Source: an uncultured bacterium (GTDB lineage: Bacteria; Patescibacteriota; Minisyncoccia; Phycocordibacterales; GWA1-40-21). From it: 64,000 nucleotides of DNA. Where the stretch lies: the NCBI GenBank assembly GCA_903831595.1, contig CAIKXY010000002.1:28339-92338 (forward strand), in the 5' to 3' direction. Positions 10,600-63,124 of the stretch are shown here, in pieces (positions within the stretch are counted from its first letter, which is position 1; the number at the start of each line of letters is the position of its first letter). The notes below the pieces were generated by a model. That model did not search any database, was not told where the DNA came from, and saw nothing but the letters and a program-made list of their open reading frames with translations. Position numbers and translations under genes: made by a program.

Positions 10600-12318
10600 A
10601 TGATAAAATATATACATATGAAAAACATCAACAACAATTTTGAATCTAATAAAGAACAGCCAAAAGAAATTGAGAAGAAATTCCTAATAGAATCTTCACC
10701 TGAAAATCTAAATACTTTTCCTCATAAGGAAATCATTCAGGGATATATTGCTATTACCGAAGATGGGACTGAGGTTCGTTTAAGGAAGAAAAAAGATAAA
10801 TATTATCAAACTGTAAAATCTGGGTCAGGAAAAATAAGAACAGAAAATGAGGTAGAAATAACGAAAGAGCAGTTTGATGTTTTATGGGGTGCAACAGTTG
10901 GTAAAAGAATTAATAAAACACGATATGAAATCCCAGATAAAGCAGGTGTAATTGAGCTTGATATATACCATGAAGATTTAAATGGGCTTAAGACTGCTGA
11001 GATTGAATTTAATTCTGAAGAGGCGAGTTTGGATTTTGTCCCCCCAGTTTGGTTTGGAAAAGAAGTTACAGAAAATAAGGCGTATAAAAATCAAAATCTT
11101 GCTCGAAATGGGATTCCCCAAGAATCAATCAAAGCAATTCCAGAATATGAATTGAATATTGGTGTTGAAAAACTTATTCAAGAAGTAGAACAAAAAGTAT
11201 TAGAAAATAAGAATGGAACAATCATTGTTGAAATAGCGGGCGGTTCAGCTTCTGGAAAAACAAGCGCAGTTTCAAAAAAATTAATGGAGGCGTTCAACGA
11301 CGAAGCAGTTTTGATATCGATGGACGACTACTACTACGGGCAAACTTTTATGGATCACAAAAAAAATGAAGGCAATGAATTAAACTGGGATCAGCCGGAA
11401 GCTTTAAATATACCAGAACTTAGAAAAAATCTTGAAGATTTGAAACAAGGAAAAACAATTCAAAAACCAAAATATGATTTTAAAACGGGTGAACCAATTG
11501 GATCTGAAGAAATAATGCCAAGAAAGGTAATTGTAATTGAGGGACTATTTGCGTTAAATGATGAAATTAAAACCGAAGGCGATGTAAAAGTATTTGTTGA
11601 TATTGGTACACACGGAAGAATTATAAGAAGACTTCTTCGTGATGTTGTCACAAGAGGAAAAAAACCTGAAGATATAATTAGTTATTTTTCTGGAGTTGTT
11701 GAACCAATGCATGAAAAATATATTCAAAATACAAAACAAAATGCAGACATGGTAATAAAAAATGAATACAAACCTGAAGTTGAGGCTGAACGATCTGGTC
11801 TACATGAGATCCAGTTAAAATTTAAAGCAGATATAGATTTAGAAAACCTGAGAAAACTTGGGGTAGATAAATTGGGACAGACAACTCAAATTGATCACTA
11901 TTATAATCCTAAAGATAGAAATTTAACTGACACAGATGAAATATTGAGAATTAGAGAAGAAGGAAGTGCGACTATTTTAACTTATAAAGGACCTCGAATT
12001 AAGTCACAGTATCGAGATAGGCCAAAATTTGAATTCAATATTGATAGTGAAACTAAAACAAAATTTTTATCTATTTATGGCAATGAGTCAAAAAGTATAA
12101 AAAAAGAAAGAATACTATACCAATTGGATAGCATAGTATTTTCAGTAGATAAAGTCAGTAAGCTTGAAGGAGATATTGAAAAGATAATTGGCACGTATGT
12201 CGAAGTCCGTTCTACGGACAAATCTATTGATGAGAAAAAATTGAATGAGACGTTATCAAAACTTGGTTTAAATATCAAAGATGGAATAAAAGAAACATAT
12301 TTTGAACTTGCAGAATAA
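10600..12318 (+). CDS. CYTH - uridine kinase (PRK family) - CYTH tri-domain protein
   Basis: N-terminal EIEKKFLIES...YEIPDKAGVIELDIYHEDLNGLKTAEIEF, a CYTH/triphosphate-tunnel fold. Middle domain IVEIAGGSASGKTS...VLISMDDYYYG...NWDQPEALNIPELRKNLEDLKQGKTIQKPKYDF, a uridine kinase P-loop with its motifs. The C-terminal EIQLKFKAD...YYNPKDRNLTDTDEILRIREEG...ILTYKG is a second CYTH. The start could be 10600 or 10618. Confidence 0.6.
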   Translation: MIKYIHMKNINNNFESNKEQPKEIEKKFLIESSPENLNTFPHKEIIQGYIAITEDGTEVRLRKKKDKYYQTVKSGSGKIRTENEVEITKEQFDVLWGATVGKRINKTRYEIPDKAGVIELDIYHEDLNGLKTAEIEFNSEEASLDFVPPVWFGKEVTENKAYKNQNLARNGIPQESIKAIPEYELNIGVEKLIQEVEQKVLENKNGTIIVEIAGGSASGKTSAVSKKLMEAFNDEAVLISMDDYYYGQTFMDHKKNEGNELNWDQPEALNIPELRKNLEDLKQGKTIQKPKYDFKTGEPIGSEEIMPRKVIVIEGLFALNDEIKTEGDVKVFVDIGTHGRIIRRLLRDVVTRGKKPEDIISYFSGVVEPMHEKYIQNTKQNADMVIKNEYKPEVEAERSGLHEIQLKFKADIDLENLRKLGVDKLGQTTQIDHYYNPKDRNLTDTDEILRIREEGSATILTYKGPRIKSQYRDRPKFEFNIDSETKTKFLSIYGNESKSIKKERILYQLDSIVFSVDKVSKLEGDIEKIIGTYVEVRSTDKSIDEKKLNETLSKLGLNIKDGIKETYFELAE

Positions 12319-20253: not shown

Positions 20254-21981
20254 ATGAAAAATTATTCAGTCAGAAATGAAATTTCAGAAAAAGCTAGTAA
20301 AGAATTGGCAAAATACCCAGAAATTTTACGTAAACTCCTATTCTATAGAGGAATTAAAAAAGAAAAAGACGCTATAGTATTTTTGAGCCCAGTCTTCGAA
20401 GACAATTATGATCCATATTTAATGAAAGATATGGATATTGCAGTTGAGAGAATACTAAAAGCCGTAGAAAAAAATGAAAAGGTAATCATTTATAGCGATT
20501 ATGATGCCGATGGAATACCAGGCGCTGTAATTTTGCATGATTTTTTTAAAAAAATAGGTTTCAAAAATTTTGAAAATTATATTCCACACCGAGTGCTTGA
20601 AGGTTTTGGTCTTAATGACGAAGCGATTGATGAATTTGCAAAAAATGGAGTTAATTTAATCATTACAGTTGATTGTGGCATTGCCGATGTTGAAGAAGCT
20701 GAAAAAATTAAGAAACACAAAATAGATTTGGTAATTACGGATCATCATTTACCAAGAATTTCTGAAAAAAATAAAGAGGAATTACCTCATGCACTCGCAA
20801 TATTAAATACAAGGCAATCAAAGTGTAAATATCCTGATAAAAATATTTGTGGAGCTGGCGTTGTATTCAAACTTGTGCAAGCACTCATAAAAAAGTCTGG
20901 GAAAAAGTTTGACATAGTAGATGGATGGGAAAAATGGCTTCTTGATATGGTGGCAATCGGGACAATTTCAGATATGGTTCCTTTAGTCGGTGAAAATAGA
21001 TTATTAGCACATTATGGTTTGAAAGTTTTGAGAAAATCTAGAAGACCTGGATTGCAAAGTCTTTTTTCTGTAACAAAAATTGACCAAAAAAATATTACAG
21101 AAGATGATATTGGCTTTATGATTTCTCCACGTATAAATGCAGCTTCAAGAATGGGTTTGCCTGAGGACGCATTTAATATGCTTGTGGCACAAAATGAAAT
21201 AGATGCTGTTAAATATGCACTTCATTTAAATAAAATAAACGATGATAGAAAAGTAATTGTAGCTCAAATGGTGAAAGAAATCCGCAAACACTGGGAAAAA
21301 TTTGACCCAGATAAAAAAAGAAAAGTTCTTGTCGCTGGAAATCCAGATTGGAAGCCATCACTTCTCGGACTTGTTGCAAACTCACTAATGGATGAACATG
21401 ATGGACCTGTATTTCTTTGGGGAAGAGAGGAAGGAAAAACTTTGAAAGGTTCTTGTCGTTCCGATGGATGTGTCGATATTGTCGCCATGATGCGAGAATC
21501 TGGAAATCTTTTAGAAGAATATGGTGGACACTCTGCTTCAGGGGGTTTTTCGATTAGTTTAGAAAAAGTTGATTTACTCGCCGATGGGCTTGAAGTCGCA
21601 TATCAAAAACTTTCTATTATTGGCAAAGAAAAAGAATTAATTGCTGATGTTGAAATAAAAATAGATGATGTAAATAATAATTTAGAAAGGCAAGTCAGCC
21701 AGCTTGCACCTTTTGGAATGGATAACCCCAAACCAATTTTTGCACTCCCAAATATTGAAATACATGATGTAAAGATTTTTGGAAAGAAAAATGACCACTT
21801 AAAAATCAATTTTAAAAATAGTAAAGGACAAATTATTTCTGCCATTGGATTTTTTATGAAGCCGACTGATTTTGATGCAAAAATAGAAAAAGGAGAAAAA
21901 ATAAATTTGCTTGCAAACTTGGAGAAAAGTTTCTTTGGCGGAAGGGAGGAAGTAAGGCTTAGAATCGTTGATTTGTCGTAA
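20254..21981 (+). CDS. recJ: Single-stranded-DNA-specific exonuclease RecJ
   Basis: DHH-family motifs DYDADGI and VITDHHLP, a DHHA1 region and a C-terminal OB-like domain. 575 aa. Confidence 0.8.
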   Translation: MKNYSVRNEISEKASKELAKYPEILRKLLFYRGIKKEKDAIVFLSPVFEDNYDPYLMKDMDIAVERILKAVEKNEKVIIYSDYDADGIPGAVILHDFFKKIGFKNFENYIPHRVLEGFGLNDEAIDEFAKNGVNLIITVDCGIADVEEAEKIKKHKIDLVITDHHLPRISEKNKEELPHALAILNTRQSKCKYPDKNICGAGVVFKLVQALIKKSGKKFDIVDGWEKWLLDMVAIGTISDMVPLVGENRLLAHYGLKVLRKSRRPGLQSLFSVTKIDQKNITEDDIGFMISPRINAASRMGLPEDAFNMLVAQNEIDAVKYALHLNKINDDRKVIVAQMVKEIRKHWEKFDPDKKRKVLVAGNPDWKPSLLGLVANSLMDEHDGPVFLWGREEGKTLKGSCRSDGCVDIVAMMRESGNLLEEYGGHSASGGFSISLEKVDLLADGLEVAYQKLSIIGKEKELIADVEIKIDDVNNNLERQVSQLAPFGMDNPKPIFALPNIEIHDVKIFGKKNDHLKINFKNSKGQIISAIGFFMKPTDFDAKIEKGEKINLLANLEKSFFGGREEVRLRIVDLS

Positions 21982-22025: not shown

Positions 22026-25000
22026 ATGGAACAAGAATCTCAATTAGTTGATGCCGGTCTTAATGAGGAAATAAGCAAAGAAGCGATTAAAAGGCAAGAA
22101 GACGAAGCCAAATTTATTAGTGGTTATATAAAATCGACAGAAAATATTAATCAAGAAATTTCTAAATTAGAAATAACAATTAAAAGAATATTTGGTATTT
22201 TTTCTACTGAAATTAATAAAAATGACTATTTGCAATCGCTGCCTGATATAGAAAAAAGCCTAAAAGATTTACAATTGAATGGCAATAAAGATATTAATTA
22301 TTTTATCGAACAATCCCCAATAATATTATGTAGCCTTAAGAAACTAAAAGAATCAACTGAAATAAATTTAGAAGCTGACAATCAAACTAAAATAAATAAA
22401 GAAAAAATTAAAAAAATTGAAGAAGAGATTGCATCACTAAAAGAGTATAATTTTTTCAAAAAAATAGTAAGGTCAGCAGACTCAAAAATCAAAAAACTAG
22501 AATCTGATAAACAGCAGCTAGTTAGTATTAATAATGAAGCTTCAAGAATTAGTACAGAAAATGTTAAACTTAATAAAGAAATAGGCAAAACTTTGCTTGA
22601 AGTTGAAAAAACAATTTCAAATATCGCCCAAAATGAGATTACAGAAAAATTGGGCAAAGAAGTAAAAATGGCGATTAATAAGTCTTGGGAATTAATGCAA
22701 GACATAAATTCAAACGGTCTTAGCTTATCAATTGGTGAATCATATATAAAAAATATTGCCTTACCATCTATTAATGGTTCTGTGGACAAAAATCTTGAAA
22801 ATAAATTATTTACTGAGTATAAATTATATACAGAAAGCGGGTATGAGGAGTACACAAAACATAAAAATAATGTAATTGATCTAGCTGACGAATTAAAGAT
22901 AATAAGACCAAATGAGCTTTTTAATATTGACAACGATGCACTGGGGCTATTGTTTTCAATAGATGTCTCAGAAAAAATCTCTAATTTAAAAAATACATTT
23001 ATTAATCTACAACAAACATTAAGCAAAAGTAATGCTGTAAATAATAGTTTTATATTATCAGATAGAGACATAGAAAATAACTTTGGTCTAGAAATTCGTA
23101 CCTCAAGTCAATATAATCAAATTATTCTTGATATGGAGATGGAAAAACAACCACTCCTTAAAAAATTAGGCTATCATGAAATAAAAGATTGGCAGGCAGT
23201 AAAAAAATCCCAATTGGTTAATTCAATTTTTGGAGAAAAAGTTAAGCGTGTTGATGATGCAATATATAAATATCTAATTCCTCAAGTTACAACTAGTTTT
23301 GATGACTCTGCGTTAATATTTTCATTAAATTACTATAAAACACCAGAAGCTGTACGTGCAGCTTTATTATTGAGCATATCTAACAAGTATTATTGCTCGC
23401 GTGAAGCCAACTTTCTCATTAATAGTTTGTCAAAGGATAAAAAATGGTTAGAAGTTTTGGATAACACAGAAAAAAAATATCCATATTTAAAACCTTTACA
23501 TGAGATATTAGCCAAATGGAATGAGTCTGATTTTGATAGTAGCTCAATTTTTTCAAGAAATCCTAAAATTAATAATAATTTGCTACAAAATCTTGTTACT
23601 TCCATAGCTGAAAACGAGAATAATAAAAGTGAATTGGGTAAAAAAACAACAACGTTGGCCTTTAATTCTCTGGGAGCAGATCAAATGGTTCCGTTTTTAG
23701 AAAAAAACGATTTGATTTCAAAAGATGAAAAAGCAAAAATAGAAAGTCTTTTTGTATCATGGCCAGATAACCATAATTTGAAGATTAAATTAAAAGATTG
23801 TTTTTATGCAATGCTATGTAATAAATATGAGAATGAAGATACCAAAGATGAACATGAAAAAATGGATTTCTATTTAAAAATTTTTGATTCCTATAAGGAA
23901 AGTTTTTCTAAGTACAATAAATTTGATGAGGAAAAAATAATCACATCTTTTATTGATTTAGTAAATAAAAATAGATTAACAAAAGATAGGGTATTGGAAT
24001 TGGCTAATCCAATTAAAACGAAAAATGGTGTGGTAAATTTTATGAATCTTGAATCAAATGCAGGAGCTCTAGATGCACCTGAACTTTTTTTAGATAGTAA
24101 TGATGGTTTAGATATATTTACTCATTTAGAAAAAAAAGGAATCGATTCAATAGATCCAAGATTAGATGGTGTAATTGGAGACAAACTAATCCATAGTGAC
24201 ATAAAAGATTATTTAATAAAAGATACAATTAATTATGTTAATTCAAGATTTGTCAATAATAATTTAGATGGCAATTTAGAAATAACAAAAAATAATTGGA
24301 AATCATTATTACTAAATTATATTCAATCTAATAACTGGGATTTTAATTTGGCGACTGGGCCAGCAAAAGGATTACACGAAAAAATATATTATATTTTTTC
24401 TTTGGACGGCTCAAAAGATTTATGTCTTAATGAAATGAAAAAAACCTGGATTCAATACTTGAATAGTTCAGATAAAAATAAATTTCCCTTATCGTCAAGT
24501 ATTATTGCTCAATCTATTAAAAATAATGGTGGTGCTGGACCGCTTAGCCAAATTGCATCACTTGGTTTTTTCCAAGATAATTATTCACTGGTTATTGCCA
24601 GTGAGCAAATTACAGAAAAAACAAAGAATCAACTTTTTGATGGTATGAAAATGATGGAGGAGAAATTTATTAAAGAAAAATGGTCGAACGAGGACACCAC
24701 AAATTTCTATAATATATCCAGAGACATTTTATCTGTTGCACCGAGCTTATTCTCAACATACCTTGAGGTTTTTGTGAAGCTTAAACAAAAAGATACCAAG
24801 ACATTCTTGCAAGATATATTCCCATTACACAGGGCAGTACTTTCGCTTATAGAAAAAAAAGATGGAGATGGACACAGAACATTTGCTAAGAGGGGGTTGG
24901 CTGGGATAAGAAAAAATTTTGTAAGATCAATTTTGGATGAGTCTGGATCTATTAAGCCATTCTCTGAACAAAAAAAAGAGCTCACTGATTTTATATTGGA

Positions 25001-26633
25001 AAATTTTAAAAATAAATTTGGAATAATTAAAGTTAAGGAAAATTTTACTCCAGAACACCTTCGTTCGACGAGTAATATTTCAATGTATTGGTCAAATTTT
25101 AATCGTAAGAGTGATACATATTTTGAAAAAGTAATGAGTGTTTATTTAGCCCTAATGATTAATGATAAGTGGGATGATTATAAAAAAGGAGAAAAAATAA
25201 ATTTTGAAGAATTATTGACTCAAGAAAGAGCATCTTTTGCTAATAATCTAAGTAAGGATAAATTAGAAATGAATCCAATTATACAGCAAAATTTAGGTAT
25301 AAATGAAAAGGATTTGCCAGAGTTTTATAATATTTTAAGTTCAGAAGTGGGAAATATAGTAATTGGAAACGTTGAAACAATAGATAACAAGCTAAATAAT
25401 GTTATTTTAAATTTAGATAGTCTTAAAGATTTGGATTTATATCCACCAGATTCATTAGATAGGCAAAGAATGAAAATACTATTGGATTATGGAAGCAAAA
25501 AAATTGGTGAAGTAGTTGCAAAAACTTATCAATCACTAATAAAGACGAAAGGGGACATCAAATTCTCGGCGGACGAACAAAGTATCAAAAATGAAATAGA
25601 ATCTATATTAAAGATTAACAATTTAGAAATAAACACAGCAAATATTAAGAAAGTATTTCAAGAAGAGATGAGACCATTTTCTACTGTCATTAATATGTTT
25701 AGTTTTGTGGAAGAGATTGGAGTTAAAAACGACATATCAGAACTCAGAGAATTATTGAAACCTTCATCAGAAATAATCTCTATTTTTAATAAATTAGGTG
25801 AAGAATTTAAACAGACATCTGGTGCTATGGCCCTATCCCAGGATTTGGGATATTTGGAAAGTGTAATTAGTAAAAATGAAGATAAAATATCTAGTGAAGA
25901 AAATTCGTCAGTAAAAAAATACTTAGATGAGATAAATAAAAAATTAACAAAACTTGAAGATAACTATAAAAAGATTATTGATAAATTTAAAAATGTAAAG
26001 CAAGGGCATGGAGTTGTCGAAAACAAGTCATTAAAAGATAGACTTAATAATATAGACAAAATTATTAACTTGCCAGATGATCAGGTTGTAGTAACGAGCG
26101 GCATAACGTCAAATTTAAATTATATTATAGAAAATATAAGAAATTGTTTATCTTGTGTGACTAATGGTGTTAATAATGATACCAATTTGACCTTTGGCGA
26201 TCAAAACAAGTTTTATTTGTATAGCAAAACCAATCAAGGGCCAAAATCAATCTCAGATCAAATTTTGTTTCTTGAGCCAGTAAAATATGATGGTGTATCT
26301 GAAATGTCTTTTGTTTTTGATAAAGTATATGGTACAAAAACCCCAACGATTTTATTGAACCAAATTGAAGTTGTAATAAAAAAATATAAAGAAATTAAAA
26401 AGAAATTTCCGGATTCAAGACTTTCTTTATTCGTTACTAATGCAGCCTTAGAATCTTCTGGTTTATCTGTCGAATCTCTTAAGCGCGATCTACCAAATAT
26501 GAAGTGTGGGACAAAAACTATTAATATAAACGTTTTAAAATCCCCAGTGGCTGATCACTATATTGAAATTGGTAGCGGAAGTAGTAGGTCATCTGGTGGT
26601 GAGATGGTTGTTAACGGAGTGTTATTAAAATAG
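22026..26633 (+). CDS. Giant hypothetical protein (1535 aa), coiled-coil-rich and Lys/Asn-rich, with no signal peptide
   Basis: Uninterrupted ORF. The N-terminal 250 aa have strong heptad-like patterns. No recognisable catalytic motifs. It is flanked by a duplicated recJ 3' end; see findings. Confidence 0.55.
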   Translation: MEQESQLVDAGLNEEISKEAIKRQEDEAKFISGYIKSTENINQEISKLEITIKRIFGIFSTEINKNDYLQSLPDIEKSLKDLQLNGNKDINYFIEQSPIILCSLKKLKESTEINLEADNQTKINKEKIKKIEEEIASLKEYNFFKKIVRSADSKIKKLESDKQQLVSINNEASRISTENVKLNKEIGKTLLEVEKTISNIAQNEITEKLGKEVKMAINKSWELMQDINSNGLSLSIGESYIKNIALPSINGSVDKNLENKLFTEYKLYTESGYEEYTKHKNNVIDLADELKIIRPNELFNIDNDALGLLFSIDVSEKISNLKNTFINLQQTLSKSNAVNNSFILSDRDIENNFGLEIRTSSQYNQIILDMEMEKQPLLKKLGYHEIKDWQAVKKSQLVNSIFGEKVKRVDDAIYKYLIPQVTTSFDDSALIFSLNYYKTPEAVRAALLLSISNKYYCSREANFLINSLSKDKKWLEVLDNTEKKYPYLKPLHEILAKWNESDFDSSSIFSRNPKINNNLLQNLVTSIAENENNKSELGKKTTTLAFNSLGADQMVPFLEKNDLISKDEKAKIESLFVSWPDNHNLKIKLKDCFYAMLCNKYENEDTKDEHEKMDFYLKIFDSYKESFSKYNKFDEEKIITSFIDLVNKNRLTKDRVLELANPIKTKNGVVNFMNLESNAGALDAPELFLDSNDGLDIFTHLEKKGIDSIDPRLDGVIGDKLIHSDIKDYLIKDTINYVNSRFVNNNLDGNLEITKNNWKSLLLNYIQSNNWDFNLATGPAKGLHEKIYYIFSLDGSKDLCLNEMKKTWIQYLNSSDKNKFPLSSSIIAQSIKNNGGAGPLSQIASLGFFQDNYSLVIASEQITEKTKNQLFDGMKMMEEKFIKEKWSNEDTTNFYNISRDILSVAPSLFSTYLEVFVKLKQKDTKTFLQDIFPLHRAVLSLIEKKDGDGHRTFAKRGLAGIRKNFVRSILDESGSIKPFSEQKKELTDFILENFKNKFGIIKVKENFTPEHLRSTSNISMYWSNFNRKSDTYFEKVMSVYLALMINDKWDDYKKGEKINFEELLTQERASFANNLSKDKLEMNPIIQQNLGINEKDLPEFYNILSSEVGNIVIGNVETIDNKLNNVILNLDSLKDLDLYPPDSLDRQRMKILLDYGSKKIGEVVAKTYQSLIKTKGDIKFSADEQSIKNEIESILKINNLEINTANIKKVFQEEMRPFSTVINMFSFVEEIGVKNDISELRELLKPSSEIISIFNKLGEEFKQTSGAMALSQDLGYLESVISKNEDKISSEENSSVKKYLDEINKKLTKLEDNYKKIIDKFKNVKQGHGVVENKSLKDRLNNIDKIINLPDDQVVVTSGITSNLNYIIENIRNCLSCVTNGVNNDTNLTFGDQNKFYLYSKTNQGPKSISDQILFLEPVKYDGVSEMSFVFDKVYGTKTPTILLNQIEVVIKKYKEIKKKFPDSRLSLFVTNAALESSGLSVESLKRDLPNMKCGTKTININVLKSPVADHYIEIGSGSSRSSGGEMVVNGVLLK

Positions 26634-26727
26634 GAAAAGGAGAAAGAATTAATTTTCTTGTGAACTTAGAAAAAAGTTTTTTGGTTTAAGGGAAGAGTTG
26701 AGATTAAGAATTATAGATATAGTTTAA
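26634..26727 (+). repeat. Decayed duplicate of the recJ 3' terminus (gene-end remnant)
   Basis: About 70% nt identity by eye to 21886-21981. One frame reads ...ELRKKFFGLREELRLRIIDIV*, against NLEKSFFGGREEVRLRIVDLS* in recJ. Confidence 0.5.
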
Positions 26728-26867
26728 ATTTTGCTAATCTAAAATCATTAATCCACATATCAGCAAAGGCTGATATTGCTGGAGGAAATTTTTTTGTAAT
26801 ATATAACTTTTTTACTTGCGAATTGAGCAATTTTAGGGTAAATTAATGCTTGTTTGGGAAAAAACAC

Positions 26868-26965
26868 GGAGAGGTGTCAGAGTGGGATAAAAGTGAACTG
26901 CTTTACTTTTATCCACAAACGAAGTTTGGGCGGCAACCAATCTGACACTATTCCGAAGGACGACA
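26868..26965 (+). other. Structured element that begins with an exact 18-nt copy of the tRNA-Ser 5' end (a tRNA-fragment-derived element)
   Basis: GGAGAGGTGTCAGAGTGG is identical to 26992-27009. It is followed by nested stems: GTGGGATAAAAG pairs with CTTTTATCCAC, and GTGTCAGA pairs with TCTGACAC. It does not fold as a tRNA. Confidence 0.3.
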
Positions 26966-26991
26966 AATTTGAGTGACAACGAAATATATTT

Positions 26992-27078
26992 GGAGAGGTG
27001 TCAGAGTGGTTGAATGAACCGGTCTTGAAAACCGGAAGGCCGGAAACGGTCTCGCGAGTTCGAATCTCGCCCTCTCCG
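26992..27078 (+). tRNA. tRNA-Ser (anticodon TGA)
   Basis: Acceptor GGAGAGG/CCTCTCC, 3-bp D-stem, anticodon loop CTTGAAA, long variable arm, T-arm GCGAG-TTCGAAT-CTCGC, discriminator G. Confidence 0.7.
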
Positions 27079-27084
27079 CATAAC

Positions 27085-27552: not shown

Positions 27553-30500
27553 ATGAATTTAAGAAACATCAAAATAAATCTATCGAATATCTTTAGAAAA
27601 AATATTGGAGAAAGAGTAAAAGTGTGGATAAAAAATCCAATATTCTCCGTTGTAATTGTGGCACTACTTTTTTTTGTAATGGCCGCAGTTTTTATTTTAC
27701 CCAGTTATTCTATTCATAAAGATAATGTAATTAAAAATCTTTCCATTACCCAACTCCCATCTACTCCTGGCCAACCAATAAAATGGATAAAGAAAATTGC
27801 TGTAAATCAAATTAATGAAGACACACATTTGGTGGAGATTCCAAAAATTGCAACAAAAGTTTCAATTTCTACTTCAACAATAAAAAATATCTCCCCAGTA
27901 AAAACCTCTAAACTTACAAACGCAGATAGAAAGAAGCTTTCAGCATTAGCTGCACAAAGAGTAAATTCTACTTCCACACTTCAACTTGCAGAAAAAATAA
28001 AACAACAAAAAATTGAATCAACTAAAAAATTAACTTTTTTTCAAAAAATATTCCGTGCCATTAGAAATTCAATTTCAAATATGTTTGCTACCGTTGAGGA
28101 CGCAGTGGCACCTGCACCTGAGACAACCATTATAGATGTTGCTCCAGTAGTTTCTCTGACACAAGATCAAACACAAACACCAGTATCAACAGATAATTCT
28201 TCAACTCCAATAGCAGATAATTCATCCACAACAACTTCTCCTGATAATTCTATACCAGTACAATCTACATCAACAGATAGCTCTCAATCCACATCCACAG
28301 CTCCCGCTACTCCAGAGATTTCAACAACAAGCGCATCAACAACACAAGATCAATCAGTTTCAACATCATCCACATCAGCTTCAGCACAAAGTACTTCCGC
28401 ATCTACTACATCAACAAGTTCTGACCAATCAATAGCCACTTCTACTGGAACATCCACAGCACTTGTAAATGCATCATCCACAGCATCAACGACGGTAGAT
28501 GTTATATACGAAACTCCAGCACCAACTATCACCGAAGCAAATACTGACACTGGAAAAATTGTCACCATTTCTGCTACGGATACTTCTGACACACCAATAA
28601 CAAACGTCTTAGCTTATGCAAACATCCCAAAAATATATAAAGTAGGCCAAGAAGATAAGATAAAAATAAAATGGGTGAACAACGGCGACCAAAATGTTGT
28701 TTTTAAGGCATATGACTTAAACAAAGATGGATGGCTCGACTACGTAGAATGGACAGTTCCACACCTTTCAACACAAACATTTGAAATTATTTTCATATCA
28801 AAAGCTTTCCAGCTTGATACAGACCAAAGTATTCTCGCAGATATTTATGATTCAGTAAAAACAAAAGATGGGAACTACGCGACAATCAGCGACGGACAAT
28901 ATGTCAGAACAACTTTCAATCAAATTTTGACCAAAGGAAATGACATCACTATTTATGCAAAGCCAACAAACACAAGTGGCTCGGCAAGTATTGAAGTTTA
29001 TCCCGTCTATGTTGACGCAGAAGGTAATCAAACAGAAGGAGACAAGCTTACACTAGTAAATGATGATGTTAATTCAAATTTCGATAATATCAATCACACT
29101 GGCAAATACAGAATTTTGCTAAAAAATCTCGTCACCCCAACAAACATTTTTGACCTAAAAGTCACTGGAAACATAGATATAGATTATATTGTTGACCCTG
29201 TCCCGACACCTTTTATCTCAACATGGGATACAAGAAATACTTCCTCTGGTTCAAGTGCAGACAATCAAATACATATTCCTCTCATAGATCCAGGCCGATT
29301 TGGTAATAATAATACTGATACACAATATGGTTTTACAGTTGATTGGGGAGATGGGAACACCGATACTATTACATCATTCGATGACCCAAATACCACACAC
29401 ACATATTCAACAGCTGGTGTTTATACACTTACGATAACTGGTACGCTTGTCGGTTGGAGTTTTGCGCTGGCCCCTATAAATGATAGTAAAAAAATTATTG
29501 AAATAAGTCAGTGGGGTTCTCTAGTTTTGCTTAATACACTCAATGACAATGATTTTATAAATGGTTGGGCTTCTTATTATTACATAGGCTATTTTGCAGG
29601 GACATCAAATTTAAGCATTACTGCAACTGATACACTCAATACTGCTAGTACAACAGAAATGATGAGCGCTTTTGATGGAAGTGGTATTAGCACTGTTCCC
29701 TCTATGAATAGTTGGGATATGTCAAATGTTAGAAGTATGAACAGTATGTTTGCAAATACTCCAAATTTTAATCAACCTATTGGAAATTGGAAAACCTCAA
29801 ATGTATGGATAATGAAAGATATGTTTGCAAATGCCACGGCGTTTAATCAACCAATTGGGAATTGGGATGTAGGTTCACTTCAAATGGATTCATGCCAAGG
29901 AATGTTTAGAAATGCAACATCTTTTAATCAACCACTAAATGGTTGGCATTTTAGGGCGCCCAATGATTTTAGGTGGATGTTTTCTGGTGCGACTTCATTT
30001 GACCAAAATATTAGTACATTTGATTTTACTAATTTGGGCGGGATTTATTTAGCAGGTATGTTTGATGGAGTTACGCTTTCTACAACAACTTATGATGCCA
30101 TATTGATGGGATGGGGAAATCCAGAACATAACGCAGGTAATTGGCCAACGGGAGTCACTTTTTCCGCTGGCAGTTCCACTTACGACTATTCTGCATCTTT
30201 AGCAAGACAACATCTTGTAAATACTTTGGGTTGGACAATTACTGACGGTGGTCCATCTTGGCCTGCATCAGACGCAACATTACTTATTGCAGCTACAACT
30301 ACAGCTCAGGGTCTAATAGATGCAAATGCACCAGAGTCGACGGATATTCCAGGCAATCATTTACCAGGTTCTCTCGCTACACTTCAAACTGCGCTTGGTG
30401 CAGTATATGCGGATATTAGCTATCCACAAAGCGTCGTCGATGAACAAACTCTTGCACTAAATACTGCCATTGATACTTACAATACATCCCTTGTTTTACC

Positions 30501-44832: not shown

Positions 44833-44862
44833 AAAAACCCGGACTGCTCCGGGTTTTTCTTT
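44833..44862 (+). terminator. Terminator after tRNA-Arg
   Basis: AAACCCGGA, loop CTGCT, CCGGGTTT, then TTCTTT. Confidence 0.5.
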
Positions 44863-45060
44863 ACATGAGTGAGACGGAGCTATGTTTTGTGAGCACGCAA
44901 AACTGGCGAGTCATGGTCGAAACTTTTTCTGAGCGACGGCGAAGAAAAAAGTTGTGACCAATATAAAACCGCTAAAAAGATAAGCGAAGTGGTCCTGCCT
45001 CGTGTATTCGTGTTTTGAGTTTGGGATGGGCCCCAAAGAAATAAGCAAGTCCAGTTTTTT
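44863..45060. repeat. GC-rich noncoding repeat (copy X), related to 53965-54130
   Basis: Shared blocks: GTGAGACGGA, CTGAGCG-NN-G-GCGAAG, and AAAAGTTGTG(A/G)CC followed by (A/G)ATAAAA. Confidence 0.35.
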
Positions 45061-52337: not shown

Positions 52338-52375
52338 CAAAAATATCCGCCGCGGATTTTTTTGTGGGCGCTAAC
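52338..52375 (+). terminator. Terminator after tRNA-Val. It includes an inverted copy of the tRNA 3' acceptor strand.
   Basis: ATCCGCCGCGGAT hairpin plus a T-run. The outer stem GCGCCCAC...GTGGGCGC reuses the tRNA 3' end. Confidence 0.45.
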
Positions 52376-52527
52376 ACGCAAACTTCTTTGCGTGTGTAAG
52401 GGATTTGAAAGACTTTTCCGTACGAGCAAAGCGAGGTGGAAAAGTACCCGCGACGGTAGTCGAGAATCCCAGAATTATTGTAAATAGCAGTTATCACAAA
52501 TCTATGCTAAATTATTAAAATATCTCT

Positions 52528-53804: not shown

Positions 53805-53962
53805 TAGTATATTATGAACTCCGATGCTCGGGTGGCGAAACTAGAAGACGCACTACCTTGAGGTGGTAGCGGGAGCAATCCTATGCAGGTGCAAGTCCTG
53901 TCCCGAGCACAAACTGCAAATAATTGAAAATCGCCTAGTAATGATAGGGCGATTTTCTTTTG
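53805..53962 (+). ncRNA. Candidate structured small RNA, unidentified, ending in a terminator-like hairpin
   Basis: Closing helix TGCTCGGG...CCCGAGCA. Internal hairpins CTACC-TTGAGG-TGGTAG and CAGG...CCTG. A 3' hairpin CAAACTGCAAA...AAATCGCC-TAGTAATGATA-GGGCGATTT, then TCTTTTGCAGTTTG. Locally GC-rich. No match to RNase P, tmRNA or SRP consensus by eye. Confidence 0.25.
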
Positions 53963-53964
53963 CA

Positions 53965-54130
53965 GTTTGTGAGACGGACTGAGCGTAGCGAAGGAGTCGG
54001 GGGCTGCGACTTTGCTTTGAGTTCACGAAAAGCAAAAGTTGTGGCCCAGATAAAAATATCAAACAAGCCTGTCCCGTGTATGAAAAAACATACAACAAGC
54101 CTGTCTCGAACACATTTTATAAAGAGTTTT
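53965..54130. repeat. GC-rich noncoding repeat (copy Y), related to 44863-45060
   Basis: Same ordered blocks as copy X: GTGAGACGGA, CTGAGCGTAGCGAAGGA, AAAAGTTGTGGCCCAGATAAAAATA. Plus a duplicated AACAAGCCTGTC(C/T)CG. Confidence 0.35.
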
Positions 54131-55646: not shown

Positions 55647-55680
55647 ACCTAGATTTAATCGTAAAAATCTGTTATAAATA

Positions 55681-55806
55681 GTTTGTTTGATGGTGGCTAC
55701 GGTGAGAGGTAGCAGTTATGCTTGTTATTAGACAGTTTGTTTGATGTTCATTTGTATTTGATGGTGACTACGGTAGGAGGTAGCAGTTATGCTTGTTATG
55801 AGACAG
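55681..55806 (+). repeat. Two tandem degenerate copies of the 5' part of tRNA-His with its upstream leader
   Basis: Copy 1, about 55681-55736: GTTTGTTTGATGGTGGCTACGGTGAGAGGTAGCAGTTATGCTTGTTATTAGACAG. Copy 2, about 55751-55806: TTTGATGGTGACTACGGTAGGAGGTAGCAGTTATGCTTGTTATGAGACAG. The genuine leader plus 5' half is TTTGATGGTGGCTATGGTGTAGCGGTAGCA. Confidence 0.45.
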
Positions 55807-55835
55807 CTGTTTTGAGGTTCGTTATGTTGTTTGAT

Positions 55836-55907
55836 GGTGGCTATGGTGTAGCGGTAGCACAGAAGCCTGTGGAGCTTTTAGTTCGGGTTCAACTCCCGAT
55901 AGCCACC
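55836..55907 (+). tRNA. tRNA-His (anticodon GTG) with an encoded G-1
   Basis: The extra 5' G pairs with discriminator C. Acceptor GTGGCTA/TAGCCAC. Anticodon stem GAAGC/GCTTT with loop CTGTGGA. T-arm TCGGG-TTCAACT-CCCGA. The D-stem is short (3 bp). Confidence 0.6.
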
Positions 55908-56144
55908 CAATTGACAGCAGTCAGAAAGTGTGACCTGATTGCGTCGTGTTCGCGAATTTTCGTTCTAGACTCGTACGGTTCAAATCGTGAAAGGGACCCA
56001 AGAGTCAGCGATTGGTTTTCAGACCGGTACGCGTCAGTTTTATAGAATTTTGGTTCTAGACCAATACAGTTAAAAAACTATGAAAATAAAAAACTGGCGT
56101 AGGTTAGTGACGTCAGTTTTTCAATGTTATAACTTTGTTATATT

Positions 56145-57553: not shown

Positions 57554-58894
57554 CTAGTTTTGTAGAATAATTTTTCTGTCATCTAACACGATTTTATTCT
57601 TTAATTGTTCGAGTAACTCCCGTTTCTCATAAATCGTTCCTTCTCTAAGTATATATTTAGCATATGCTCGTATATCAACTTCTTTTTCTTTTATTTTTTT
57701 ATCATCTTTTATTCCAAATACGTTTGAACGTAGTTTGTTATGTTTTTCGATCTCTCTATCAATGATATGTCTTGCACCAATCTGATTGATATCAAGTTTG
57801 TCGATAATTTCTTCAAGCTGAGTTATTAAATTATCTTCTCTGATATATGGATTTTTGCAAAACATATCATTATGCCTTGTACAACTGTAGTAAATGTATG
57901 AATGCACACTCCCATCGCTAATATTTTTATGTTTTTCCTGTGCTGTTATTCCTGATCCACATTTTCCGCAAGTCATTAGTTTAGTAAATGTAAACTCATG
58001 ATAAAGTTTTTTACTCTTACTTCGTTCTTCTGCCATATTTTCTTGTACACGCTGGAAAAGTTCTTTGGTTATAATCGGCTGATGTTTCCCCTCGTACCAG
58101 TTACCGCTTCCACGCGGATATTCGAATGTTCCAGTGTAGAAAGAGTTTTTTAATAGGTTGTATATTGTACTTAAGTTTAGATTTTTATTATTTTTCGTTT
58201 TGAATTTCATATCATCTCTCAGCCAATGATATAATTTTCGTCCACTCCATCTTTCATATGCAACTTTTTCAAATACTTGTTTTATGATTGGAGCTCTAAT
58301 CGGATCTACTATTACATAGCACTCTCTACCGATAATTTTCTCATTCGTATATCCTACCGAAGCCACTGATGGCCACAATCCCATCTCTGCCCGTGCTTTG
58401 AGTCCACGTTTTACATTTACGCTCTTGTTGTCATTCTCAAGCTTCGCCTGTGAGCCAAGAATCATCAACAAGAACTTTTCATTAGGGGAGTCAGTGAACT
58501 TTTGACTGTAGGTTCTTATCTCAACTAATTTCTTTTGATCAATAAGATCGACTATCATTCCAAGATCCCCACCATTTCTTGAAAGTCTGTCTGGTGCCCA
58601 CGTCAATATTCCATTAAACATTCCTTTTCGGATGTCCTCAAGAAGTTGTACGAAAACCGGTCTTGAACCACTAGCTTTCGCCGAATGACTCTCTTTACGA
58701 ATTTCAGTTATGTTTAAACCATCTCGTTGGGCAAGCTCTAGCATCTCCTTGATTTGAGAATCAATTGATAACGCTTGCAATTCATCCGCCTCACTGCTCT
58801 TACGTGCGTATAGGCAGTATTTGATTGTCACATCCGCCTTTTGTTCTCCACGAGCCACTTGTGCCCCTGAAAACCCTTGTTTCGCCTGTTGCAT
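57554..58894 (-). CDS. Large serine recombinase (resolvase/invertase N-terminal domain, recombinase domain and zinc-ribbon)
   Basis: N-terminal YARKSSEADELQALSIDSQ with the catalytic Ser, DRLSRN, a recombinase domain, and the Cys cluster CGKCGSGITAQ...YYSCTRHNDMFCKN. Confidence 0.8.
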   Translation of the reverse strand: MQQAKQGFSGAQVARGEQKADVTIKYCLYARKSSEADELQALSIDSQIKEMLELAQRDGLNITEIRKESHSAKASGSRPVFVQLLEDIRKGMFNGILTWAPDRLSRNGGDLGMIVDLIDQKKLVEIRTYSQKFTDSPNEKFLLMILGSQAKLENDNKSVNVKRGLKARAEMGLWPSVASVGYTNEKIIGRECYVIVDPIRAPIIKQVFEKVAYERWSGRKLYHWLRDDMKFKTKNNKNLNLSTIYNLLKNSFYTGTFEYPRGSGNWYEGKHQPIITKELFQRVQENMAEERSKSKKLYHEFTFTKLMTCGKCGSGITAQEKHKNISDGSVHSYIYYSCTRHNDMFCKNPYIREDNLITQLEEIIDKLDINQIGARHIIDREIEKHNKLRSNVFGIKDDKKIKEKEVDIRAYAKYILREGTIYEKRELLEQLKNKIVLDDRKIILQN

Positions 58895-62749: not shown

Positions 62750-63124
62750 TTGTTACATTATAACTTTTATATTTTTTCTTGGGAAGGCCTAAAACAATAA
62801 TGACTGAATATAGTTAATTGGTCTAGTGGCATTGTTGGTAACTTTGCTTCGCAAACTCTCTAATCTAAGCTAGGGTATGGAGTAATACCTAATTTTTTGG
62901 TATTATGTTATTTACAATTAAATAAAAGACGACCTAACCCCTTTAGAAATAGAGGATATGGTTGCAAAACCCGCTAGAGAACAAAGGACTCCTCGTCAGA
63001 GTCACTCTAGCGGGTCATATTGGGAAACTGATATGGGTGAGGCTGAAAGGTTTCATCGCGATGGCGGGGAGCTCTTTGTTTATATAAAGACTCACCTCTA
63101 TCGATTAAAACCCGCTAGAGTTTT

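Follow-up and report, generated by a model that had tools for sequence, protein, structure and literature searches.

The DNA analysed here is a window of 64 kb (the whole stretch at positions 28,339 to 92,338 of contig CAIKXY010000002.1, from an uncultured bacterium of the Patescibacteriota), and the element under study is a 124-bp block immediately upstream of its tRNA-Ser gene. The gene, tRNA-Ser(UGA) (anticodon tga), was called by ARAGORN at 26992-27079 and scored 59.6 bits with the Rfam tRNA model. The block begins with a second copy of the gene's first 18 nt, hereafter the pseudo-copy, and the 106 nt between the two are referred to as the insert. The features of the locus are as follows, in window coordinates.

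26816-26844, + strand: putative ancestral promoter of tRNA-Ser, assigned by conservation and position (-35 TTGCGA at 26816-26821, 17-nt spacer, -10 TAAATT at 26839-26844); it faces the pseudo-copy
26868-26885, + strand: pseudo 5' fragment, exact tRNA-Ser nt 1-18; the ancestral 5' end beside the ancestral promoter and leader
26882-26916, + strand: near-perfect hairpin GTGGGATAAAAGTGAA-CTGC-TTTACTTTTATCCAC; its left arm begins inside the pseudo-copy at tRNA nt 15-18
26916-26928, + strand: small hairpin CAAAC-GAA-GTTTG, present in minimum-free-energy structures
26934-26954, + strand: inverted copy of the tRNA 5' part, CAACCAATCTGACAC, the reverse complement of nt 7-21; the following TATTCC partly pairs with nt 1-6
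26955-26991, + strand: spacer, now the immediate leader of the real tRNA, with weak resemblance to the repeat family R1 described below (TTCCGAAGGACGA... and TTTGAGTGACAACGAAATA)
26992-27079, + strand: intact tRNA-Ser(UGA), 88/88 identical to the tRNA of the relative L126
27086-27115, + strand: intrinsic terminator that ends the tRNA-Ser transcript; the relative L127 has the same hairpin after its tRNA

The 18-mer GGAGAGGTGTCAGAGTGG was present exactly twice in the window, at 26868-26885 and 26992-27009, two sites whose identity an earlier note on this DNA had pointed out, and no third site was found in the window with up to three mismatches allowed (0.02 chance matches expected). The upstream site is an 18/18 copy of tRNA-Ser nt 1-18, on the same strand and 124 nt upstream of the gene start. 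With a repeat period of 124 bp, the block can be placed at 26868-26991 or, equivalently, at 26886-27009. Identity to the tRNA stops at nt 18, in the D-loop, and the remaining 106 nt resembled tRNA nt 19-88 at the level of chance (1730 of 2000 shuffles scored as high), so the copy is indeed not followed by the rest of a tRNA.

Within the insert lies a 15-nt inverted copy of tRNA nt 7-21 (26934-26948, CAACCAATCTGACAC), matching at 14 of 15 positions (0 of 2000 shuffles; z 5.4). The sequence TCTGACAC belongs to this inverted copy and can pair either with the pseudo-copy or with the real tRNA. Since the inverted copy covers nt 19-21, three bases past the end of the 18-nt direct repeat, it appears to have been templated on an intact tRNA gene.

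No further coding or regulatory content was recognized in the insert. A consensus scan found no promoter-like site in it, including the spacer at 26955-26991; the ancestral promoter was not listed by this simple scan either, because only 8 of its 12 positions match. There was no open reading frame (ORF) of 50 or more aa on the + strand within the insert, and the only ORFs overlapping it were two on the - strand that run antisense through the tRNA. In Rfam, searched with gathering and E-value thresholds, only the tRNA scored above threshold, and the sub-threshold matches all fell on the tRNA and the terminator. With blastn-short, the insert matched nowhere else in the window or in the ~150 kb of related genomes searched, and the hairpin at 26882-26916 was likewise seen only once when the window and related loci were compared. 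Two scans of viral contigs for an attP-like or phage source, with the core plus left junction and with the hairpin, gave 0 matches. When 26730-27000 was compared by blastx with the HNH, GIY-YIG and Cas2-like proteins that relatives encode, only the orthologous leader/tRNA overlap came up, and phmmer found no GIY-YIG protein in the window. The block was identical in independent assemblies from other samples (L002 and L004; loci are referred to by number), and contig L001 ends within it. The species is carried by samples ERZ27229607, ERZ27229613, ERZ18633328 and SRR8496323.

Empty sites in related lineages

Relatives were located by a metagenome scan with the D-arm and anticodon-arm sequence of the tRNA (yielding L126) and by RecJ-anchored look-ups. 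The comparison set comprised four syntenic Paceibacteria lineages (L126, L127/L128, L129/L130/L132 and L131), with RecJ 81-91% identical across those examined. The pseudo-copy and the insert were absent from all of them.

In L126, which is syntenic with the window at 78-84% nucleotide identity and carries the 88/88 identical tRNA-Ser, the same promoter lies 18 nt upstream of the intact tRNA, and the promoter block ACTTGCGAAT...GGTAAATTAATGCTTGTTT is conserved with the window. In L127/L128 (RecJ 91% identical), an 11-nt leader separates the promoter from tRNA-Ser, and L131 (RecJ 81%) has the promoter, a leader and tRNA-Ser in the opposite orientation. The promoter block ACTTGCGAAT..GGTAAATTA is common to L126 and L127 and occurs in L131 as ACTTGCTCTT..GTTAAATTA, with a promoter-to-tRNA distance of 11-18 nt before an intact tRNA-Ser in all three. 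In L129/L130/L132 (RecJ 90%), an ORF for a 165-aa HNH endonuclease runs into tRNA-Ser. The leader and start of the window pseudo-copy, TGGGAAAAAACAC/GGAGAGG, are orthologous to the leader and tRNA start of L129/L132, TGGTTAAAAACAC/GGAGGGG, and the leader ...AAAAACAC/GG of the tRNA in L129/L130/L132 is shared with that of the pseudo-copy.

The conserved promoter thus faces the pseudo-copy at the ancestral distance, which identifies the pseudo-copy as the gene's former 5' end, with 124 bp interposed. The comparison shows an ancestral order of promoter, short leader and tRNA; in the window species, the gene's first 18 nt have stayed by the promoter and are followed by ~106 bp of other sequence and then by a complete tRNA gene. 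The block looks like a young, lineage-specific feature of one Patescibacteria species rather than a conserved RNA. The expectation that its structure would be conserved in homologous regions failed, as four related lineages lack the block entirely, and the suggestion in the earlier note of a tRNA-derived small RNA (sRNA) or promoter-proximal decoy is therefore without comparative support.

The tRNA-Ser allele of the window is 100% identical to that of the more distant L126, whereas ~14 of 88 positions differ in the closer relative L127, a pattern that suggests allele exchange or conversion at the locus. We considered acquisition of a foreign tRNA allele by recombination as a source of the duplication and rejected it, because both copies in the window are of the same allele.

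Folding of the block

The segment 26868-26965 was predicted to fold at -35.4 kcal/mol, compared with -20.3 ± 2.8 kcal/mol in dinucleotide shuffles (z -5.4; 0 of 200), so the nested stems noticed earlier are real. The outer helix of this fold, GGAG-A-GGUGUCAGA / UCUGACACU-A-UUCC, is formed by the pseudo-copy and by TCTGACAC-TA-TTCC, and it arises because 26934-26948, being an inverted copy, is complementary to tRNA nt 7-21. The hairpin at 26885-26914 has 13 bp and is lengthened by GTGG/CCAC to 26882-26916. As the stems are fully accounted for by the inverted duplication, we infer that they are its by-product and provide no evidence of a dedicated RNA function.

Instability of the tRNA-Ser neighbourhood

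The window has 33% G+C and encodes DUF5652, giant surface proteins, RecJ and TIM. Relatives of its RecJ and adenosyltransferase are listed in databases under Candidatus Paceibacterota, Taylorbacteria and Patescibacteria, and a look-up of the exact RecJ protein gave no record. Relative to L126, the window carries an additional 4.6-kb gene (22026-26633), on either side of which lies a copy of the recJ tail (21880-21950 and 26627-26696); this match corresponds to the recJ-tail remnant that the earlier note had placed ~140 nt upstream of the block.

26627-26727, + strand: displaced, frameshifted copy of the recJ 3' tail, ~140 nt upstream of the block; together with the real tail at 21880-21981 it brackets the 1535-aa ORF

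The 1535-aa ORF (22026-26633) has no Pfam match and is absent from L126, and a large ORF follows recJ in L133/L134. The recJ-tail copy is a second insertion-with-duplication event, about 140 nt upstream of the block. Furthermore, in comparison with L126, an ORF of ~120 aa ahead of the promoter and ~850 bp beyond the tRNA have been lost from the window, and several ORF gains and losses fall within 1 kb. In relatives, HNH, GIY-YIG and Cas2-like ORFs lie at or within ~0.4 kb of the tRNA-Ser gene. The hotspot interpretation is thus supported by the recJ-tail duplication, the ORF gains and losses and the endonuclease ORFs of relatives.

The 165-aa HNH ORF (L129, about 11760-12254; L130; L132, 1990-2487) replaces the tRNA-Ser promoter region and reads into tRNA nt 1-24. 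In L127, a Cas2-like/PaaX_M ORF (128 aa) lies between recJ and tRNA-Ser, with copies of the palindrome CAATCTCCACCATGGTGGAGATTG on both sides (11740-11775 and 12190-12220).

Pseudo-copies at tRNA-His and in other genomes

A parallel case was found at the tRNA-His gene of the window.

55693-55714 and 55764-55785, + strand: two pseudo 5' copies of tRNA-His, between the putative ancestral promoter (about 55663-55680) and tRNA-His at 55837-55908

The 5'-half duplications reported here earlier are real: positions 55681-55836 consist of two tandem units, each with the leader and tRNA-His nt 1-23, that are 92% identical to each other. In L135/L136 (neighbouring protein 95% identical) and in L137, the promoter ...AAAAATCTGTTATAAAT is followed by a 33-34-nt leader and tRNA-His, and none of the three loci contains tRNA-His pseudo-copies. 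The pseudo-copies in the window have no inverted partner. The outcome at tRNA-His is the same as at tRNA-Ser, namely an ancestral promoter that faces a pseudo-fragment, but its form differs in being a tandem duplication. Because the tandem units include the leader, the copies are best explained by slippage or unequal recombination rather than by site-specific integration.

Downstream of tRNA-His, the window encodes a DUF3892 protein (-), a Peptidase_M78/IrrE-like protein (+) and a large serine recombinase (57554-58894, -). Relatives carry a PG_binding_1 protein, PNP_UDP_1 and NUDIX at this position and are without the IrrE-like protease and the serine recombinase. The segment 56145-58894 of the window is probably an integrated element.

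The 18-mer GGAGAGGTGTCAGAGTGG was also searched in one genome per species across 185,579 species, giving at least 122 matches in at least 120 loci. Nearly all of the matches listed start tRNA-Ser genes, in many phyla, which marks the 18-mer as specific to tRNA rather than as a dispersed repeat, in agreement with the tRNA origin proposed for it. Among the matches listed, ~10 of 120 tRNA-Ser loci, from many phyla, had an upstream direct copy of the gene's 5' end, which would be vanishingly rare by chance. The D-loop of these pseudo-copies is often interrupted by a small hairpin. At four loci (L062, L064, L100 and L104), the 5' copy and the tRNA-Ser gene are separated by a GIY-YIG ORF, either intact or decayed, and in L041 a near-complete pseudo-tRNA-Ser(GCT) with an ~85-nt insert in its T-loop is followed by a GIY-YIG ORF and then by the real gene. 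Overall, GIY-YIG ORFs were present on the tRNA strand, mostly at most ~0.5 kb from tRNA-Ser, in 8 of 120 loci among the matches listed, often between a pseudo 5' part (with a hairpin in the D-loop or T-loop) and the intact gene. GIY-YIG ORFs near tRNA-Ser were located as follows.

Upstream of tRNA-Ser: L062, L064, L100, L104, L096 and L041
Downstream of tRNA-Ser: L078 and L111
In relatives of the window: L127, 12696-12983, - strand; L129, 8616-8888

These ORFs encode proteins of ~85-100 aa (PF01541) and come from several phyla. Our literature search returned nothing relevant on GIY-YIG or other homing endonucleases with bacterial tRNA 5' duplications. The motif TCCGAAGGAC, shared with pseudo-copies of Bacteroidota, was treated as a coincidence and at most a lead, because a 12-nt match is expected ~0.3 times at that search size.

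A repeat family linked to tRNA genes

A structured element of ~85-130 nt, which we denote R1, is common in this lineage and was found mostly just downstream of tRNA genes (Arg, Leu, Val and Ser) in Paceibacteria/Parcubacteria. Its core is AGACGGAGC...GAGTCGGGGTCG...CUGAG..CGAAGAAA..GUGAC, and a covariance model built from four copies found 11 copies, three of them in the window.

Window, + strand (covariance model): 44858-44976, after tRNA-Arg; 53958-54062, after tRNA-Leu; 723-841
Window, + strand: 52363-52470, degenerate copy
L131: 10757-10875
L132: 2609-2739
L056: 5522-5642 and 5800-5888 (- strand)
L126: 9179-9290 (- strand)
L018: 644-767 (- strand)
L019: 6168-6286
L129: 7696-7788 (- strand)

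In the model-fitted alignment, 92.8% of cells were paired and 25 of 29 pairs had double changes (0 of 500 shuffles), with slid controls far lower. R1 had no match in Rfam 15; it may represent an undescribed RNA motif or else a repeat that is mobile. In several copies, the tRNA 3' end repeated in direct orientation (up to 19/19) and the complement of that repeat close the element; at tRNA-Val in L131 and tRNA-Ser in L056, R1 is bracketed by inverted and direct copies of the tRNA 3' end, again up to 19/19. L056 also has tandem tRNA-Ser genes with R1 elements between them.

The block was tested as a member of R1 and rejected: the covariance model (cmsearch, filters off) gave no match at E ≤ 10 in 26868-26991, and nhmmer gave only a weak 22-nt match at 26963-26984 (E = 8 over the whole window). 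Local alignment of the spacer 26955-26991 with the L132 element gave z 2.4 (7 of 300 shuffles as high); overall, 7-8 of 300-500 shuffles scored as high, which is not significant after multiple tests. A relation of the block to R1 is a possible lead.

Small hairpins interrupt the complement-type copies of tRNA 3' ends that lie after tRNA-Ser and tRNA-Val (L131, 3395-3265, - strand; L132, 2606-2625; window, 52363-52408). Examples of such hairpins are GAAAGCTCT-GGG-AGAGCTTTC, GGAGTGCT-GGG-AGCACTCC (L056) and CACGCAAA-CTTC-TTTGCGTG flanked by TAA (window). The window also contains, at 62931-63054 (+), a LOOT RNA (RF03000; 73.5 bits, E 6e-12), which places this motif in a Paceibacteria-like genome; to our knowledge, LOOT RNA has so far been an orphan motif.

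Origin of the block

We propose, with a probability of about 0.5, that the block is a scar left at the DNA level, in a recombination hot spot, by a duplication-inversion or an insertion, and that it now serves as a long transcribed leader removed by RNase P. The locus would be one that is often broken, with homing-endonuclease genes and other insertions found there in relatives. The insert would have been built at least partly from the tRNA gene itself, as indicated by the inverted copy of nt 7-21 and the palindrome arm that starts in nt 15-18. Given these self-derived copies and a palindrome inside the duplicated segment, error-prone repair or a replication template switch (or fold-back repair) is the most likely origin and would have produced a direct-inverted-direct duplication plus filler. 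Selection would keep only outcomes in which one intact tRNA is regenerated, which would explain why the repeat starts exactly at tRNA +1. Since an inverted copy with no pseudo-copy ahead of it would probably do harm, the two may well have arisen together.

Transcription of tRNA-Ser would still start from the old promoter, with a leader of ~140 nt. This reading is in keeping with the lack of a promoter-like site in the insert and with the terminator right after the tRNA. The pseudo-copy and the inverted copy would be made first and would pair co-transcriptionally, leaving the tRNA free to fold, and RNase P would then cut off the whole leader.

Several points weigh against this proposal. The mechanism itself is one that we infer, and ~70 nt of the insert have no identifiable source. 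The direct repeat is 18/18 but the inverted copy has a mismatch, whereas a single-step template switch predicts copies of equal age, and the block showed no polymorphism among the three assemblies that carry it. For the full precursor, the favoured predicted fold was the one that ties up the 5' end of the real tRNA in pairing with the inverted copy (-112.2 versus -88.3 kcal/mol, 24 kcal/mol apart). Because equilibrium prefers the sequestered 5' end, the order of folding matters, and the picture of a harmless leader would depend on co-transcriptional folding order.

It is also possible that the block came from elsewhere, as a miniature element or as what is left of an element with an integrase or endonuclease. 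More specifically, a small non-coding foldback that targets tRNA genes in their 5' part, or a relic of such a larger element, could have entered the D-loop and carried or generated the 18-bp copy of nt 1-18, so that the gene was regenerated in a mirror image of the usual 3'-end regeneration. We regard this only tentatively, as an explanation of lower probability than a local scar. In its favour, a direct repeat of the gene terminus flanks a short insert with the 5' fragment upstream, as in 159 of 3919 tDNA islands (PMC4383910), and the bracketing of R1 by inverted and direct tRNA 3' ends in relatives has the mirror-image architecture. The weak likeness of the spacer 26955-26991 to R1, and the GIY-YIG or HNH ORFs that lie between pseudo-copy and tRNA or abut the tRNA in other genomes, point the same way. 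However, the insert contains no integrase, nuclease or ORF remnant, is unrepeated in the 64 kb of the window and ~150 kb of related genomes, and is missed by the R1 covariance model. The D-loop junction is not a known crossover sublocation (PMC4383910), and an inverted copy of the target within the insert is predicted more readily by a local origin. Of the integration origin put forward earlier, a DNA-level insertion is supported by the empty sites in relatives, whereas recurrent integration and excision is not, as no integrase, ORF remnant, second copy or attP-like viral match was found in the sequences searched. The premise that integrase events leave 3' fragments only was too strong in view of the 159 islands with a 5' fragment.

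A doubtful extension of the mobile-element idea is that the block is the 5' counterpart of R1-type elements, together forming an undescribed class of small, non-coding, structured mobile elements that enter tRNA genes. The terminal 18-19 nt would be copied in direct and inverted form, the gene regenerated and the element closed by a helix of tRNA sequence; endonucleases encoded nearby might provide mobilisation.

That the block is a functional RNA seems quite unlikely. The two direct 5' ends, that of the pseudo-copy and the real one, could together with the inverted copy form a three-way set of competing helices, as in an attenuator, that gates tRNA-Ser folding or RNase P processing, or the block could give a ~100-nt tRNA-derived sRNA or decoy. 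Such a role would agree with the strong fold (z -5.4), with the ability of the inverted copy to pair with either direct copy in two global folds 24 kcal/mol apart, and with the unchanged state of the block in three assemblies. However, the block is absent from every related lineage examined, including one with an identical tRNA and promoter, and has no Rfam match. Its only other copies are identical, leaving no measurable covariation, the stems are explained by the inverted duplication, and the tRNA-His copies have no inverted partner.

A whole-gene tandem duplication of tRNA-Ser, perhaps with a downstream repeat element, whose upstream copy decayed save for nt 1-18, is similarly improbable. 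Near-complete upstream pseudo-tRNAs with insertions do occur elsewhere (the tRNA-Ser(GCT) of L041, and L104), and L056 has tRNA-Ser genes in tandem with R1 between them. However, nt 1-18 are retained at 18/18 while the rest of the insert is unlike nt 19-88 (1730 of 2000 shuffles as high), a contrast that neutral decay does not produce, and the inverted copy would be unexplained. Finally, an assembly or chimera artefact from the repeated 18-mer, to which the end of contig L001 inside the block might point, is extremely improbable, since assemblies from different samples (L002 and L004) read through the block with sequence identical to the window, and the 18-nt repeat is far shorter than the read length.

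Taken together, the observation made in the earlier note was confirmed and its interpretation partly supported. For the proposed scar, the case implies that a single-copy tRNA gene can be parted from its promoter by a self-derived insertion and survive if an intact copy is regenerated and the precursor can be processed. Terminal pseudo-fragments, palindromes, endonuclease genes and covarying repeats at tRNA genes, in Patescibacteria and other phyla, suggest that tRNA genes are preferred sites of breakage and insertion beyond integrase islands. We consider this wider pattern of pseudo 5' fragments, endonuclease genes and R1 a more interesting lead than the single scar. In practice, such tRNA fragments can mislead island finders and tRNA annotation and can interrupt short-read assemblies, as happened where contig L001 stops.

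Comparison with known systems

Islands in tRNA genes (tDNAs) are recognized by Islander from a tRNA gene and a same-orientation terminal fragment, either 5' and upstream or 3' and downstream, with a tyrosine integrase between them, a length of 2-200 kb and a crossover in the anticodon loop or at the T-loop/T-acceptor junction (PMC4383910). A 5' tDNA fragment upstream is a documented minority, with 159 of 3919 islands (PMC4383910). Like such islands, the block has an intact tRNA and a cognate end fragment in the same orientation and on the correct side, with the gene restored by the intervening sequence. Unlike them, it has only 106 bp between fragment and gene, below 2 kb, and no integrase; its junction lies in the D-loop, whereas island crossovers fall in the anticodon loop or at the T-loop/acceptor junction, and its insert holds an inverted copy of the target.

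The cis-mobilizable elements (CIMEs) of Streptococcus are att-flanked remnants of integrative elements without a recombinase. By analogy only, the block resembles them in that direct repeats of an attachment core flank a short non-coding remnant, but no full-length relative, recombinase or second copy was found for it in the window, the relatives or viral contigs. A transposon or miniature inverted-repeat transposable element (MITE) is a further candidate kind of element, marked by multiple genomic copies, terminal inverted repeats and a short target-site duplication of fixed length. The search for a second copy of the block covered the window and the related loci and found none, and an 18-bp duplication would be unusually long.

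Free-standing homing endonuclease genes are known beside tRNA genes, such as the seg genes (GIY-YIG) of phage T4 and the HNH genes of T5. The likeness lies in the HNH ORF that overlaps the tRNA-Ser 5' end in relatives, the GIY-YIG ORFs nearby and, in other phyla, the GIY-YIG ORFs between pseudo-copy and gene. The window site itself, however, has no endonuclease ORF or remnant and so differs from an insertion of such a gene.

R1 is similar to the block in adjoining tRNA genes and in having a closing helix made of a tRNA terminus copy and its complement, and the spacer of the block is weakly similar to it. However, R1 lies 3' of the tRNA and uses the T-arm and acceptor 3' end, whereas the block is on the 5' side and draws on the 5' end of the acceptor and D-arm.

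Duplication-inversion-duplication (DUP-INV-DUP) rearrangements arise by replication template switching or fold-back repair. The block differs from them in that no template was identified for ~70 nt, the copies measure only 15-18 nt and the event cannot be reconstructed stepwise. It resembles them in having direct, inverted and direct copies of a short segment within ~140 bp and a palindrome that starts in the duplicated segment. A partial duplication that regenerates a tRNA gene is a known kind of event, and the block is a variant of it.

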